IMG/VR virus record: IMGVR_UViG_3300009314_000001 | DNA: 64,000 nucleotides | Origin: a virus | Lineage: Duplodnaviria > Caudoviricetes | Strand: one strand, 5' to 3' | In this document: in pieces, positions 58,988 to 64,000 of the stretch | Layout of the letters: every line of letters begins with the position of its first letter | How positions within the stretch are numbered: the first letter of the stretch is position 1 | Program-made: the position numbers and the translations under genes | Notes under the pieces: model-generated | Seen by the model: only the letters and a program-made list of their open reading frames with translations | Told to the model about the DNA's origin: nothing | Database searches by the model: none

Positions 58988-59611
58988 TTACAGACTGATC
59001 TTCAGCTCATCACCAGGCTGACGTCTGTAAACTACCTCAAGAGCGGCCTTGATATGGGCACGATTAGTACCATCGAAATAGAGTGCTCTAGGATGCTCAA
59101 AATATACATTAAATTCATTCTGAGGTAATATAGCTAGGCCTCGTGGCCTACGTCCCAACCAAGCCTCAACATATGGCGGATGATCATCTATAAGGACTTT
59201 CCCATAATCTAGACTTTTGGCGACTACATCATCAGTACCAGTAACTACTCTGATTCCTATATCACCGGTCAAGGTTTCAGGAATCCTTCTATGGCACCAC
59301 TGAACTTTCTCTTGCCATGCTAAAGGACACCAAGACGGTCCTTTGGTAAGAATATGAATACTAAATCCTATTTCCTTAAGCATTTCCAGCACCATAAATC
59401 CAAGATGGAGTGTCTCCAATTCCTCCCACCATCCTGGTGTATTAACAATAGCCTTCCGACGCGCTTCAAGATGTCGTGGTAGACTATGAAGATCAGAATG
59501 CCGAAGAGTTTCACCAGGACCTGACATAGCCATAAGATCCCGATATAAGGCCTTTTCATAGTCAGCTAAAGTGCCGTCCATATCAACTAGTGCTATCTGA
59601 TTACCGTCCAT
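58988..59611 (-). CDS. HAD-family 5'(3')-deoxyribonucleotidase
   Basis: LVDMDGTLADY, ILTKGP, KVQW, VLIDDHP. Confidence 0.85.
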   Translation of the reverse strand: MDGNQIALVDMDGTLADYEKALYRDLMAMSGPGETLRHSDLHSLPRHLEARRKAIVNTPGWWEELETLHLGFMVLEMLKEIGFSIHILTKGPSWCPLAWQEKVQWCHRRIPETLTGDIGIRVVTGTDDVVAKSLDYGKVLIDDHPPYVEAWLGRRPRGLAILPQNEFNVYFEHPRALYFDGTNRAHIKAALEVVYRRQPGDELKISL

Positions 59612-60713
59612 CTCTCTTTTTGGCCTCTTGAACTTCTGATCGGAATCGAACTAAATCATCAACAGTTAGCTTCTTCAACTGTCTATCGTATAACCGTCTA
59701 ACCTCGGACAGCGTTAATTTCAATTCAGTAATACATTCGTTCCAGTCCTTTATTACCATGTTCTTCCCGTCCTTCTTATATGGTATAGAAGGAGGAAGAC
59801 TAAACCATATTGGAAACCTGAGATTGCGTAGTAATAATTGATTCTCAATAATACTCTTTTTACCAGCTATATCATTATCGGGCGAGAGTATTATTCTCTC
59901 CTTAGGACCTAATAATTTAATCTTTTTGACCTGATTAGGACTTAGTGATGCACCTCCTGAAGCCAGTACTTGCTCTCCCAATGTGTTCTGATCAAATATC
60001 GATTCGGTAATAATAACATATCTAGCAGGTTCAATATCATCAAAACCATATAAATAATCTGCTCTGCCACCCTCCATCTTCCCAGTAATATTATCTTCAT
60101 TATCATATTCATATAAATCCGGGAATTCAAATCTCTTATTAATCCTCGATCGGCTTTGCCAATATACTAAGTCATCGAATTCATAGTATGGCCAATAAAC
60201 ATCCATCCCTAAGTAGTATAATTCGTGAGTCTCTATCCCCTCGTCAGTATAACCTCTAGACCGCAACCAACCCTTCAGAATATTAGCTTGAGGATCTTCC
60301 GCCGACCAAAGTAGCCTCGTGCCCCCAGGAAGGCTTACGGAAACGGTTTTCTTGGCCTCTGAGGCACCGGGCCGGTTTTCGGGCCTCATGTAAAGAGAAA
60401 CGCTCCCCGTGTCTCCGAGAACCTCGGAGAGGGCATCCTTCATAGAGCATTTCCGATAGACCCGGACGAATCTGATAAATGAGCAATTACGCTTACCAGT
60501 CCTAGGATTTATTGGACCGGCCCATTCATCCCCATGCCAAGAGTGGCAGACACCTTTATCAGGATTTATTTGGAAGCGGAATCTTGTATCGCCGTCGAAT
60601 GGGTCGCATATTTGATATTCCGCACCACCTTTGCGTACTTTATACTCGAAGTTTCGCTCTACCCAAGCGATAATTCTATTCGGTGGTATTTTCTTGTAGG
60701 CATGGTCAGGCAT
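59601..60713 (-). CDS. DNA primase (DnaG/gp61-like, Toprim)
   Basis: WLRSRG, YWQSRS, IITESIFD, LSPDNDIAG, KDWNE. Start placed at ATG 60713. Confidence 0.85.
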   Translation of the reverse strand: MPDHAYKKIPPNRIIAWVERNFEYKVRKGGAEYQICDPFDGDTRFRFQINPDKGVCHSWHGDEWAGPINPRTGKRNCSFIRFVRVYRKCSMKDALSEVLGDTGSVSLYMRPENRPGASEAKKTVSVSLPGGTRLLWSAEDPQANILKGWLRSRGYTDEGIETHELYYLGMDVYWPYYEFDDLVYWQSRSRINKRFEFPDLYEYDNEDNITGKMEGGRADYLYGFDDIEPARYVIITESIFDQNTLGEQVLASGGASLSPNQVKKIKLLGPKERIILSPDNDIAGKKSIIENQLLLRNLRFPIWFSLPPSIPYKKDGKNMVIKDWNECITELKLTLSEVRRLYDRQLKKLTVDDLVRFRSEVQEAKKRDGR

Positions 60714-60751
60714 ACATTTCAAATACCCTGACAGTGCCTAGCATGATTAGA

Positions 60752-62509
60752 CTAACGATCAGGAATAGTTCGAACATCTTTAGTATCTCCATTAGGATCT
60801 ACAGCAGTTGGTAGGATTTCTACCTCTTCATCTAGTACCACTTGTGCGACATATAAGTTTCTACCATTAATCACTGACATCACTCGAATGTTGATGTCAA
60901 TTTCTTCACCATCCTTGGTGACCATTTTGCCAGAAACTTGTATGATGCCGCCTTTATTTAATTTTTCCAGAAGATCCGGATACGTCATTCCTATTTGGTG
61001 TCTCTCGAATCTTCCTGGGGGGATTATTAGGTCAAGCTTTCTACCTATAGCTTCACCTTCTGTCCACCCAAGTAATTTTTGAGCACCATCATTCCACATA
61101 GCAATCGTACCATTCTTAGCATCACAAATAATATATGCTGTATCACTCATTTCAATTATTCTACGCCACTGATCTGCTCTCTTATTAGCCCTGTATATTG
61201 TTATGACTTGCCATAGGTCTTCCATCAAGAAAGTAACTTGCAAGACGTCATCTTGCGTATACGGTTTCTTCTTATTCCCAAGTCCTATAATTAGTCTACA
61301 TTTCCCTTCAGTAAAAACTGGTACAGACATATATCGGCTCAATACTACTTTATGCTCTGCAGGGTGCTCTGCATTTTCATCCATAGGCTTGCCACCAAAG
61401 TCATTGTTAACGTATGCCTTTTGTGTTCGAAATGGAATAGCCCATTGTGCTTCCCTTGCGATACCTTCTGCAATATCAAATTCAGCACGATCATTATGTA
61501 TCTTATAATCCAACTGCATATTTTCAGACCAAACAGCTACTGTCACCGTATTTTCATCATTTTCATGAACATAGCCTATATAACCATACCTACTACCAGT
61601 CAAGCGAATACATTCTTCTAGACAAAAATCCTTCAAACTCGCCTCAGTATGTGTACCAACATGGCTGTATAATTTAAGAGAAGCTTCTAATCTCTCTTGC
61701 GTTATACTAATCCTAACATCATTCACTTGTGCCACATGTAAACTATATCCAAGAAATGAAACCAAAAAAGCAATGATAAGAATGATTATAGCAGATGATA
61801 CTTTGCGTAATGTGTTTTCAGGCTTCCGCTTACGCGATTCATGTCTATCGTGGAGCCGCTTAAAAATCGGAGTAAGAGCACGAATGAACACAACAGAACC
61901 AACAAGTATGACCAAAACAGCAAAACTTGAAGCAATAACACCAGCCCTAATAAAAGGACTTCTGATTTCAGCAATATCCATTTTCGCCACTAATCCAAGA
62001 TCGCAACAAATCATATCAACGGGTTCATATGCTGCAAGGACATATACACCTCTATAATCGCGACCTACCATGGAACCAGAGTGACCATTTAGAACCATTT
62101 GCATAGGCTCAGCATAATTAGATTTTAAAGCTATGATCTTACGATCTTCTACACCTGTATGGCGATGACTAAGTAGAAATACTATATCACTACCTTCTCG
62201 TTCTGCTAATGTAAATTCTCCAGTTTTGCCAAAACCATTATATCTCCGATGTGCTTCAGTAATTTGAGTCAATGCTGCTTCAGATGCTTCATCTTGATCT
62301 TCAATTTGACTATGAGAGAATTTAGCTATTGACTCCATTAATCTGGCCTGGCTACGAGAAGTCTCAACTAATCTACGCTCAACTTCATGTACTGCAGCAT
62401 TATACGACAACACTATCGAGACAATACCAATAATCAATGACACACAAGTCATAACTATTAGTAAAAAATAAAATCTTTTACGATCATCACGTATCATCGT
62501 TTGGCTCAT
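60752..62509 (-). CDS. membrane sensor protein: TM-Cache-TM-TM-GAF-PAS, with no kinase or other output domain
   Basis: GFGKTGEFTL...GRDYRGVYVLAAYEPV (Cache-like); YGYIGYVHE...RYMSVPVF...GLGNKKKPY (GAF); WNDGAQKLLGWTEGEAIG (PAS); ends 25-30 aa after the PAS. Start placed after GGAGG. Confidence 0.85.
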   Translation of the reverse strand: MSQTMIRDDRKRFYFLLIVMTCVSLIIGIVSIVLSYNAAVHEVERRLVETSRSQARLMESIAKFSHSQIEDQDEASEAALTQITEAHRRYNGFGKTGEFTLAEREGSDIVFLLSHRHTGVEDRKIIALKSNYAEPMQMVLNGHSGSMVGRDYRGVYVLAAYEPVDMICCDLGLVAKMDIAEIRSPFIRAGVIASSFAVLVILVGSVVFIRALTPIFKRLHDRHESRKRKPENTLRKVSSAIIILIIAFLVSFLGYSLHVAQVNDVRISITQERLEASLKLYSHVGTHTEASLKDFCLEECIRLTGSRYGYIGYVHENDENTVTVAVWSENMQLDYKIHNDRAEFDIAEGIAREAQWAIPFRTQKAYVNNDFGGKPMDENAEHPAEHKVVLSRYMSVPVFTEGKCRLIIGLGNKKKPYTQDDVLQVTFLMEDLWQVITIYRANKRADQWRRIIEMSDTAYIICDAKNGTIAMWNDGAQKLLGWTEGEAIGRKLDLIIPPGRFERHQIGMTYPDLLEKLNKGGIIQVSGKMVTKDGEEIDINIRVMSVINGRNLYVAQVVLDEEVEILPTAVDPNGDTKDVRTIPDR

Positions 62510-62837
62510 CATCCTCCTCCGACTCATCAGGAACCGGTTCAATATGGAGATTTATCTTCCCCTGAAAGAAAATCTTCATTAAATCAAGTGCCGTTGCCCC
62601 ACCTATTCCAGCTAGCCCACTCACGGCTAACAAAAATGGTATATTTCCTTTGCCTTCAAAGTAATTATACCACATTAAAGCAACAATTAATCCAATGATT
62701 CCACTATATAAGATAGACGATAAGACGGATCTGAGATTCAGATCTTCTTTACCTCTCAGTAAAGCTGCTAGTCCTCCAAGAGCTGCGACGCCGAAGGCCG
62801 ACATGAAGACTAGTATATGAGTAAGAGTCCACACCAT
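62487..62837 (-). CDS. holin, LydA-like, three TM segments
   Basis: AALGGLAALL, SGIIGLIVAL and SGLAGIGGATAL pattern; charged C-terminal tail. Confidence 0.7.
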   Translation of the reverse strand: MVWTLTHILVFMSAFGVAALGGLAALLRGKEDLNLRSVLSSILYSGIIGLIVALMWYNYFEGKGNIPFLLAVSGLAGIGGATALDLMKIFFQGKINLHIEPVPDESEEDDEPNDDT

Positions 62838-62871
62838 AAGTTAACCCAGTCATAAGTTAACCCAGTCATAA
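62835..62871. repeat. perfect 16-bp tandem duplication (CATAAGTTAACCCAGT x2.3)
   Basis: 62835-62850 equals 62851-62866, followed by CATAA; spans the holin start region. Confidence 0.95.
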
Positions 62872-62872
62872 A

Positions 62873-63364
62873 TTATCCTACACAAGCATGAAGGCACAAA
62901 CCATACACGAAAAGCCCAAACAAACTAAGTATGATACACCAAAAGAACACACACCTCCAAAACCTAATTTTCCTCTCCTTCAGCAACAGATAAGCTTGAA
63001 CAATAAGGGCATTTCCTATAAATTGCATATTCCCTTGACCCTTCCATAGGTATGTCAATGCTCCTGCATTATTAGCTTCCAGAATTAACTCAAGCTCTTC
63101 ACTACCTGAAAAGACGACAACAGGGGGACTTTTATGTCGTCTATATCTAATATATTCAATAGTTTGTTTAGGTGTTGAATCTGGCAGATTCAGATCTAAC
63201 AAAATCAAATCTGCATGTCTTTCACGTCCATGTGCATCATGTAGAGTACTAACAACCTCCAATGATATCAACTTATTCTTATCATTGTGTTCTAATACTC
63301 GCTGCATTAGAGCGATATCGACTTGTAAGTCCTCGACCCACAATATCTTCATCGATTTCATCAT
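62873..63364 (-). CDS. response-regulator receiver protein with a C-terminal transmembrane anchor
   Basis: VED, LLDLNLPD (phospho-Asp), VFSG and YLWK are all present; KERKIR then a hydrophobic 22-aa segment. Confidence 0.9.
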   Translation of the reverse strand: MMKSMKILWVEDLQVDIALMQRVLEHNDKNKLISLEVVSTLHDAHGRERHADLILLDLNLPDSTPKQTIEYIRYRRHKSPPVVVFSGSEELELILEANNAGALTYLWKGQGNMQFIGNALIVQAYLLLKERKIRFWRCVFFWCIILSLFGLFVYGLCLHACVG

Positions 63365-63389: not shown

Positions 63390-64000
63390 TCATGATATCG
63401 TAAGAACAAATTTCCTGCTCACCCTAGTCGAACCATTCGGCAGCGTCAAAGTGATGTAATACCTATATGTCCCCTTTAAAAAACGAGACGTGTTGAGATC
63501 ATACTGGACTACCCACGGATTTGACCTATACGATCCTTGTCTGATACCAATCCTACATGCCTCAGCATCGGCAAGCAATTCATTGTGCTGAGTTTCTATC
63601 GTGATAGTCGGCTGCAAAAATGGAATGATAGGATTAACAAGATTGAAATTATAATCATACAAAGGCAAAGGCATAAGCCCAACCTCAAGAGGCCTCGCCT
63701 CAGGTGTATGAAATTTCTGATCTAGTGGTTCAAAACCAAACCGAATAGTCTGTAACCGATCGTCGCAAAACCATTCTTCTGGATAAACCCAAAACCGATG
63801 ACAACACCTTAATAACAATGGGTCATAGGTGTCCTCATCCATATCACAATCTGTAGCATCCGTACCTAACGCTCCACAAGGATTATCGGCGAAATAGTAC
63901 CAAACATCAAAATAGACATCAGGTACTTCAAAGTCCTCTGAAATAGCATAGGGAAGGTGATATCTGCCAGCTACCGGTGTATCATCCTCTGATGGCTCTG
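63390..64000 (-). CDS. hypothetical beta-rich protein, partial (frame open to the window end)
   Basis: No in-frame stop between ATG 63842 and 64000 (EPSEDDTPVAGRYHLPY...); C-terminal KGTYRYYITLTLP Ig-like strand pattern. Confidence 0.7.
   Translation of the reverse strand, partial: EPSEDDTPVAGRYHLPYAISEDFEVPDVYFDVWYYFADNPCGALGTDATDCDMDEDTYDPLLLRCCHRFWVYPEEWFCDDRLQTIRFGFEPLDQKFHTPEARPLEVGLMPLPLYDYNFNLVNPIIPFLQPTITIETQHNELLADAEACRIGIRQGSYRSNPWVVQYDLNTSRFLKGTYRYYITLTLPNGSTRVSRKFVLTIS

Follow-up and report, generated by a model that had tools for sequence, protein, structure and literature searches.

We analyzed a 64,000-nucleotide stretch of viral DNA (hereafter, the window), the reverse strand of bases 44694-108693 of the 122,317-bp IMG/VR virus record IMGVR_UViG_3300009314_000001, with an emphasis on three adjacent genes, denoted here REC, H and S, that encode, respectively, a membrane-anchored receiver protein, a holin-like protein and a membrane sensor without a recognizable output domain. 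The initial annotation of this locus, made from the nucleotide sequence, described three contiguous, co-directional genes for membrane proteins and proposed that they comprise a signal-gated lysis system. The gene arrangement is as described, with all three open reading frames (ORFs) on the minus strand at the following positions:

62873..63364, minus strand: REC, a 163-amino-acid receiver-only protein with a C-terminal membrane helix, specific to this phage; match to PF00072
62487..62837, minus strand: H, a 116-amino-acid protein with three membrane helices; sub-threshold match to PF16083, matches to phrog_6384 and phrog_785
60752..62497, minus strand: S, a 581-amino-acid protein translated from the ATG at 62497, the start used by gene callers in independent assemblies

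The completeness of the 122,317-bp record is estimated by CheckV at 34%, and the genome-wide negative results reported below cover this record only. The same proteins are also encoded in longer contigs from other samples, with lengths of 289,811 bp and up to 340,278 bp, and the source of the window is a marine jumbo myophage with a genome of about 340 kb. Identical proteins in the same gene string were found in contigs from several samples, indicating that the genes are intact and that the absence of a kinase in S is not an assembly artefact. Two DNA sequencing runs of marine metagenomes, from two studies, hold most of the stretch; no RNA sequencing run is listed as holding it.

Conserved linkage of H with an anchored PAS protein

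To delineate the conserved part of the locus, we compared 12 genomic contexts, namely, that of the window phage and those of 11 further contigs that encode H homologs with 37-62% identity. In all 12 contexts, the gene immediately 3' of H encodes a protein with PAS as the sole type of Pfam domain (the GAF domain of S is discussed below); in one of these loci, the partner carries two PAS domains. The two genes are tightly packed throughout, the distance from the H stop codon to the start of the PAS gene ranging from -38 to +9 nucleotides in the 12 loci. None of the other called genes in these loci encodes a PAS domain or a kinase. The linkage of H with an output-less PAS protein in 12 of 12 loci is, in our analysis, the new observation on this system.

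The surroundings of the pair are variable, with at least five different flanking neighborhoods among the 12 loci, including the following:

primase: window phage
giant 2H-SAK/InPase/LigD_N gene: L011, L021, L023, L027, L029 and L030
thioredoxin: L014
virion protein: L020
sigma-factor fragment and nucleotide-metabolism genes: L022

Furthermore, the PAS partners show only 20-38% identity to S. The linkage of H with the PAS gene is thus conserved through rearrangement and deep divergence, which is the usual signature of a functional operon. Because the pair is kept while its flanks differ, H and the anchored, translationally coupled PAS protein are the conserved unit, a two-gene membrane module of marine jumbo phages. 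The conserved linkage of the holin gene with both PAS and receiver genes that the initial annotation proposed to examine therefore holds for the PAS gene, found next to H in each of the 12 contexts, but not for REC, which is present in none of the 11 other loci.

The PAS partners are proteins of 158-296 amino acids in which a short basic N-terminus and a single membrane helix are joined by a short linker to the PAS domain. This organization was found in 11 of the 12 loci, the exception being L031, where the first approximately 65 residues of the partner (L031:1687-2244) resemble an out-of-frame translation and include no membrane helix. The H gene of the same locus has an odd 60-residue N-terminal extension, and both anomalies are likely to come from sequence errors in this short Logan contig. 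When the anchored-PAS profile was run against 1.84 billion representative sequences, the matches were dominated by giant multi-PAS proteins. No match was found among GenBank phages by megablast with the region or by tblastn with S, H and one of the small partners.

In the clade where the pair is flanked by the giant 2H-SAK/InPase/LigD_N gene, this gene always follows the pair; it encodes more than 1,600 amino acids at its longest and is split differently between contigs. The 2H-SAK, InPase and LigD_N domains suggest RNA/DNA end-repair and phosphoesterase functions.

A conserved non-coding leader of about 340 nucleotides was detected in one clade directly upstream of H (L011:7664-8003, L021:4658-5003 and L023:4663-5003, as well as L012 and L013). 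The mean column identity of the leader alignment is 71%, and RNAalifold predicts 68 base pairs, 16 of which show compensatory changes. The search against Rfam yielded no family at the gathering score or at E<=1, and nhmmer detected the leader in no other locus, including the window phage, where REC takes the corresponding position. The leader can be considered a candidate for a structured RNA that regulates the H-PAS operon.

Relationship of H to phage holins

Hydropathy analysis places the three membrane helices of H at approximately residues 5-27, 37-57 and 66-88. Loop 1 is basic and conserved, with nearly invariant R28 and R36, loop 2 contains the conserved WYNYFxGxGN motif, and the C-terminal tail is acidic, with 10 aspartates and glutamates among the last 30 residues. 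The longer N-terminus of H is supported by the 47-member alignment A1.

H was initially classified as a LydA-type holin. The score of H with the LydA family profile PF16083, its only notable Pfam match, is 23.7 bits, below the gathering score of 28.4, so that 'LydA-type' would be best understood as remote homology as opposed to curated membership. H matched the PHROG holin families 6384 and 785 with E-values of about 1e-6. When the H family (H of the window phage and 46 relatives with 37-62% identity, alignment A1) was scanned one sequence at a time, phrog_6384 was matched by 43 of the 47 members, phrog_785 by 30 and phrog_175 by four; all these are holin families, and no other PHROG was matched. 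PF16083 was matched by 21 of the 47 members at E<=0.01 (best E-value, 8.2e-7), with each of the other Pfam families matched by only one to three members, at E-values of 0.0016 or weaker. In the ESM Atlas feature search, the neighbors of H that belong to named families were all from holin superfamily III (score 0.91), the nearby clusters being Phage_holin_3_1, 3_2, 3_3 and 3_5, and the structure search in the same Atlas ranked the LydA cluster first. In all likelihood, H is a holin-superfamily-III protein; that it is also the lysis holin of this phage appears less likely than the membership in this superfamily.

Scans of viral contigs with S, H and REC singly, and with the A1 alignment, revealed no confirmed relatives. 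In bacterial genome contigs, the A1 scan produced one spurious 21-residue match, that is, the family was not found by this method. A single, divergent locus (L024:4001-5017) was found in the A1 scan of metagenome contigs: a small phage encodes an H-family member with 29% identity that matches phrog_6384 at 2.9e-9. This gene lies directly before the genes for the small and large terminase subunits, a position that is the classical site for lysis genes. It is followed by an 82-amino-acid coiled-coil ORF and by a gene for a 141-amino-acid protein with an N-terminal signal or anchor; neither a PAS partner nor a recognizable endolysin was detected in this locus.

Domain architecture and origin of S

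In agreement with the initial annotation, the S gene overlaps the H stop; from the ATG at 62497, the overlap is 11 nucleotides. The longest ORF spans 60752-62542 and begins with the TTG at 62542, which would extend the overlap to 56 nucleotides; the ATGs at 62509 and 62512, located behind GGAGG, are further alternative starts. The S protein has the following features:

62396..62464, minus strand: membrane helix 1 (approximately residues 12-34), from hydropathy; collinear with helix 1 of bacterial homologs
61949..62395, minus strand: putative extracytoplasmic single Cache/PDC-fold sensor domain, from homologs, an AlphaFold2 model and Foldseek
61880..61948, minus strand: membrane helix 2 (approximately residues 184-206), from hydropathy; aligns to helix 2 of bacterial kinases
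61802..61879, minus strand: strongly basic segment connecting helices 2 and 3, with a predicted cytoplasmic location; 7 K/R in the 15 residues before helix 3
61733..61801, minus strand: membrane helix 3 (approximately residues 233-255), from hydropathy (2.49), alignment A2 and BLASTP against P0047 and P0036
61202..61651, minus strand: GAF domain, PF13185 (GAF_2) at 46.8 bits (cut-off 28.6); in collinear position with its counterparts in P0047 and P0036
60857..61171, minus strand: PAS domain, PF00989 at 37.1 bits (cut-off 22.6), with alignments A2 and A6

The description of S as a Cache-GAF-PAS sensor is sound for the GAF and PAS domains, both of which score above the Pfam cut-offs, but the Cache assignment has no counterpart in Pfam, where no family was matched in this region, and comes from the modelled fold. 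The AlphaFold2 model of the region, built with 33 homologs, has a predicted local distance difference test score (pLDDT) of 90.9, and Foldseek retrieved with it dCache domains, Tlp3, KinD, TlpB and CitA, with E-values from 1e-4 to 7e-3 and TM-scores, normalized by target length, of no more than 0.65. The hydropathy profile of the sensor includes three membrane helices, not two. Neither HisKA, HATPase_c, GGDEF nor any other output domain was found in S with Pfam, and the NCBIfam kinase models were unmatched as well, in agreement with the initial annotation. S ends about 34 residues after the PAS domain, and the primase gene begins 30 nucleotides further. Likewise, no cognate kinase was found elsewhere: no HATPase_c kinase is encoded in the 122,317-bp record, which covers about a third of the genome.

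S is collinear with bacterial histidine kinases of the Cache-GAF-PAS type over a region that begins with helix 1, includes the Cache domain, helix 2 and the GAF domain, and extends into the PAS domain; S shows 31% identity to P0047 over 81% of its length and 35% identity to P0036 over 74%. Considered separately, the putative Cache domain shows 39-52% identity to N-terminal domains of many bacterial proteins, namely, histidine kinases, RsbU phosphatases, cyclases and sigma-54 activators, and the Cache alignment A3 contains 28 invariant columns. Unlike these kinases, S lacks HisKA and HATPase_c, and an extra helix replaces their coiled-coil linker: helix 3 occupies the position of that linker, and, in alignment A2, it matches the sole helix that precedes PAS in the small partners. 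The PAS domain of S is the portion shared with the partners in the other 11 loci; the long form, with Cache and GAF, was found in no other viral contig in the scan.

These comparisons show that the Cache and GAF parts of S are of bacterial origin. Given that these parts are restricted to this phage and that small anchored PAS proteins are present elsewhere, S is an elaborated version of an ancestral PAS partner, a small helix-anchored PAS protein to which host-type Cache and GAF domains were added later in this phage. The initial notion that the signaling proteins lost their outputs is at odds with this scenario, where the ancestral partner was a small anchored PAS protein and the additional domains were acquired.

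Predicted topology and PAS sensing

In the PAS partners, the N-terminal flank of the membrane helix carries a net charge of +2 to +5, compared with -2 to +2 for the C-terminal flank; in each of the nine partners measured, the charge is higher on the N-terminal side. The positive-inside rule accordingly predicts an extracytoplasmic PAS domain in the partners. S provides an independent argument for this prediction. Its Cache domain is homologous to kinase extracytoplasmic domains located between two helices, which would put the loop after helix 2 inside; with this basic loop inside, the GAF and PAS domains that follow helix 3 would be outside. We infer from the three-helix architecture and the positive-inside rule that both these domains are periplasmic. 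For H, the nearly invariant R28 and R36 point to a cytoplasmic loop 1 and, consequently, to a predicted N-out, C-in topology, with about 12 periplasmic residues including the WYNYFxGxGN loop.

A twin-arginine motif (RR followed by hydrophobic residues) is located just before the helix in 4 of 11 partners (L014, L020, L023 and L026); in the remaining partners, the corresponding segments are RKR, RLRK, RTR or KNK. One idea is that a folded, cofactor-loaded PAS domain might be exported by the twin-arginine translocation (Tat) pathway.

The sequences with known structures most similar to the PAS domain of S (best matches in PDB) are six FixL and two EcDOS heme domains, and the AlphaFold2 model of this domain (pLDDT 78.8) has FixL, the FG214 heme-PAS and DosP as its top fold matches. 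His500 of S aligns to the FixL histidine that is the proximal heme ligand, and each of the 11 phage partners readable at this position has the histidine as well. The invariant histidine was considered as a specific mark of heme binding and rejected: of the 935 PAS domains in the closest bacterial proteins, 82% have histidine in the same column, as do 68% of those in the kinase homologs of the sensor, so that 68-82% of the related bacterial PAS domains have it. Sensing of oxygen or redox by a heme-type PAS domain, as suggested by sequence and modelled fold, should be regarded as a lead and not as a result, and it fits uneasily with a periplasmic location. The phage PAS domains also differ from FixL, EcDOS/DosP and FG214 in that the latter are cytoplasmic and drive kinase, phosphodiesterase or DNA-binding outputs, whereas the phage domains are output-less and predicted to be periplasmic.

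Charge pairing between the acidic tail of H and a basic segment of the partner was considered and discarded as inconsistent across the loci. Co-folding of H with residues 225-581 of S gave a score of 0.01, which is uninformative on binding either way.

The receiver protein REC

The receiver annotation of REC is well supported, with a score of 42.9 bits against PF00072 (cut-off 30.2). HMMER alignments with LuxO and KdpE identify E11 and D12 as the acid pocket, D57 (codon 63194-63196) as the phospho-acceptor, S86 as the conserved T/S and K108 as the conserved lysine. The full phosphorylation site, the C-terminal anchor and the absence of an output domain noted initially were all recovered: the set of catalytic residues is complete and no output domain is present. 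The gene is preceded by an AGGAG ribosome-binding site ahead of its ATG. Two further features belong to this part of the locus:

62888..62956, minus strand: C-terminal membrane helix of REC (approximately residues 137-159), from hydropathy; mean Kyte-Doolittle value of 2.37 over residues 133-163
62840..62871, minus strand: perfect tandem repeat of the 16-nucleotide unit TTATGACTGGGTTAAC, two copies, read from the sequence; it takes up the REC-H spacer, its end adjoining the start codon of H

The two copies of TTATGACTGGGTTAAC are its sole occurrences in the window, and the repeat is also present in the independent assembly L017. Each copy contains an ATG and the GTTAAC palindrome; no clear Shine-Dalgarno sequence was found before H.

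A word-based search of 5.8 billion proteins retrieved no relatives of REC. As judged from its distribution, REC is outside the conserved unit and lineage-specific. The proposed tie of both signaling proteins to the holin has strong comparative support for the sensor, with the receiver falling outside the unit.

As the initial annotation proposed, REC could act as a second antiholin that sits beside H by means of its tail anchor and is switched by phosphorylation of D57. Its gene is immediately upstream of H on the same strand, with a 35-nucleotide spacer, and the protein combines a membrane anchor with an intact phosphorylation site. We nevertheless regard this as improbable, given that REC is missing from all other H-PAS loci and lacks detectable relatives, that no kinase is encoded in the 122,317-bp record, and that adjacency in a single lineage is weak evidence.

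A different role for both signaling proteins would be that of decoys in host signaling: S would form mixed dimers with a host kinase that has the same Cache domain and helices, silencing or redirecting it, and REC would drain phosphate from a host kinase, with the adjacency to H reflecting only the ancestral PAS partner. Such a role would accord with the collinearity of S with bacterial kinases (31-35% identity over 74-81% of S; 39-52% for Cache) and its termination before the kinase domains, with the complete catalytic residues and missing output of REC, and with the lack of both REC and the kinase-collinear form of S in the other 11 loci. The invariant H-PAS pairing, however, is left unexplained, and so is the third helix, due to which these domains of S (GAF and PAS) and those of the host kinase itself should be on opposite sides of the membrane; moreover, no host or cognate kinase was identified. 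We consider decoy function a poor explanation of the locus, with a low probability, and return to the reading of S as a partner of H.

A possible signal-controlled lysis module

The reading that we favor, with confidence just short of even, is that H is a holin and the sensor partner sets its triggering, in the gene order of P1 lydA-lydB. On sequence grounds, the locus probably represents an undescribed way to tie the bursting of the host cell to a signal. Under this scheme, H would be a holin in the inner membrane, and the PAS protein would be a dedicated antiholin or co-holin associated with H via its membrane helix, the contact between the two proteins being mainly through membrane helices. 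Depending on the sensing state of the PAS domain, the partner would hold or release H, such that the timing of lysis would be set by a signal and not by a clock alone. In the window phage, the Cache domain, two helices and the GAF domain ahead of PAS would provide S with added ligand inputs, and a host kinase or acetyl phosphate may act as a further input via REC. That H forms holes, that H and its PAS partner touch each other and that REC takes part at all are the steps that we infer.

A more specific version of this scheme, which we view as doubtful, posits a new class of antiholins: a signal-anchored, extracytoplasmic, possibly heme-binding PAS domain would gate a holin-superfamily-III protein via helix contacts, so that an environmental or periplasmic cue (oxygen, redox or a ligand) would time lysis; in the window phage, three inputs would converge on the gate, namely, those of the captured bacterial Cache domain, of GAF-PAS and of host phosphorylation via REC, which would amount to kinase-free signaling with membrane permeabilization as the output.

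By gene order, the closest precedent would be P1 lydAB and, by logic, T4 RI. The lydA (holin) and lydB (antiholin) genes of P1 share 4 nucleotides at the end of lydA, and their operon is not linked to the endolysin (lysozyme) gene (PMC9025707). The phage pair resembles this arrangement (the dar operon) in that the holin gene comes first and the partner gene overlaps the holin stop, and in that the only notable Pfam match of H is the LydA family; it differs in that H is below the PF16083 cut-off and lacks a significant profile match to LydA. P1 LydB was the sole known antiholin compared with the PAS partners (hhalign with alignment A2), and the resulting probability was 0.06%. RI of phage T4 is an N-terminally targeted, signal-responsive periplasmic antiholin (PMC8385771, PMC11413866). 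The T4 T/RI/RIII system is similar to the phage module in employing a separate antiholin that an N-terminal hydrophobic segment directs to the periplasmic side, the side predicted also for the anchored PAS partners. Unlike these partners, RI is not related to PAS and carries a cleavable signal peptide, and the T4 genes are unlinked; T itself is a class III holin with one helix and a large RI-binding periplasmic domain, in contrast to H, with its three helices and almost no periplasmic mass.

Sensory systems are also coupled to holin-like membrane proteins in cellular organisms, namely, in Firmicutes, where the two-component system LytSR controls the holin-like and antiholin-like proteins CidAB and LrgAB. 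This control is transcriptional and involves a complete kinase and a DNA-binding regulator, whereas the phage pair includes neither a kinase nor a DNA-binding output, the coupling being by gene overlap.

Several observations weigh against the lysis-timing reading. Regarding H, the PF16083 score remains below the gathering threshold, and hhalign of A1 against P1 LydA returned a probability of 0.35% (E=0.17), with a single-sequence template that makes this a weak test. With respect to the gene neighborhoods, no endolysin or spanin gene was called beside the H-PAS pair in any of the 12 loci; the lysozyme, SLT and amidase_2 families (PF00959, PF01464 and PF01510) were not found in the 122,317-bp record; and most of the relatives carry the pair among nucleotide-metabolism and replication genes, not in a lysis cassette. 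The 12 loci share the pair by descent and are not 12 independent events. As for the partners, LydB is a soluble protein without a membrane helix or any likeness to PAS (PMC9025707), whereas the phage partner is anchored and carries sensor domains. H would expose only about 12 residues to the periplasm, so that a periplasmic PAS domain would have to act via membrane helices, and an extracytoplasmic location would be unusual for a b-type heme PAS and for a GAF domain. Finally, REC is unique to this phage, and its role is a guess.

Some of the same observations are compatible with a membrane sensing module unrelated to final lysis, in which H, as a small channel or scaffold, would change the potential or permeability of the membrane, or prevent superinfection, in the course of infection, and the PAS protein would regulate it in response to the redox, oxygen or ligand state of the host. 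In most of the relatives, the pair is located amid genes of early or middle type (thymidylate kinase, dNK, ThyA, ribonucleotide reductase (RNR), dCMP deaminase, primase and ligase), no endolysin or spanin gene is adjacent in any locus, with the three endolysin families absent from the record, and the strongly acidic tail of H contrasts with the tails of P1-type holins, which are described as positively charged (PMC9025707). Conversely, the profile-based and feature-based neighbors of H are all holin families; linkage to an endolysin gene is not obligatory for a holin, as shown by P1, where lydAB is likewise unlinked; and the record is only 34% complete. Jumbo-phage lysis genes are often scattered, which also counts against a non-lysis module. 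On balance, a role outside lysis appears unlikely, albeit deserving of consideration, and we retain signal-dependent control of H by its PAS partner as the working interpretation.

Our literature searches yielded no report of an antiholin of the PAS type or of a lysis cassette that includes a PAS protein, and a comparative review of jumbo phages mentions neither. The known cases of condition-responsive lysis timing are, to our knowledge, few (T4 RI/RIII and the lysis inhibition of N4 and ICP1), and none of them involves a standard sensor domain. If the proposed scheme is valid, the most common sensing fold of bacteria has been recruited by phages to determine when the cell bursts, and the burst timing of marine viruses would be linked to oxygen, redox or nutrient cues. 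The pair would also provide lysis research with a defined two-gene system and would constitute a natural case of domain accretion (Cache, GAF, receiver) on a lysis gate, as well as an example of a signaling protein that acts on the membrane instead of through phosphorylation or a second messenger.

Neighboring genes and other sequence elements

The REC-H-S genes are located between T4-type tail-sheath, tube and baseplate genes upstream and primase and 5'-nucleotidase genes downstream. No defense system was matched by PADLOC in the locus. The window primase (59601-60722, minus strand) matches phrog_47 at 2.4e-26, and its relatives, with 49-56% identity, are encoded on eight IMG/VR contigs. In none of these eight loci is an H gene present within 10 kb of the related primase, and five of the records contain no H gene at all; thus, the H-PAS cassette is not syntenic with the primase and has moved relative to the replication genes.

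A scan of the locus for promoters and terminators revealed nothing above the shuffled background, and the frequency of the CAAANATA motif in the window is at the chance level. A variant of this motif, CAAAGATA, is located upstream of the gene for a 288-amino-acid protein that precedes REC; timing is not inferable from it. Beyond window base 64000, the L017 assembly (L017:8500-8551) contains the element CAAAGATATTATAG about 25 nucleotides before the start of the same 288-amino-acid gene. This element is similar to CAAATATA, which is found 15-45 nucleotides upstream of the sheath gene and of two other genes in the same locus, and may be a promoter for the gene string that consists of the 288-amino-acid gene, REC, H and S.

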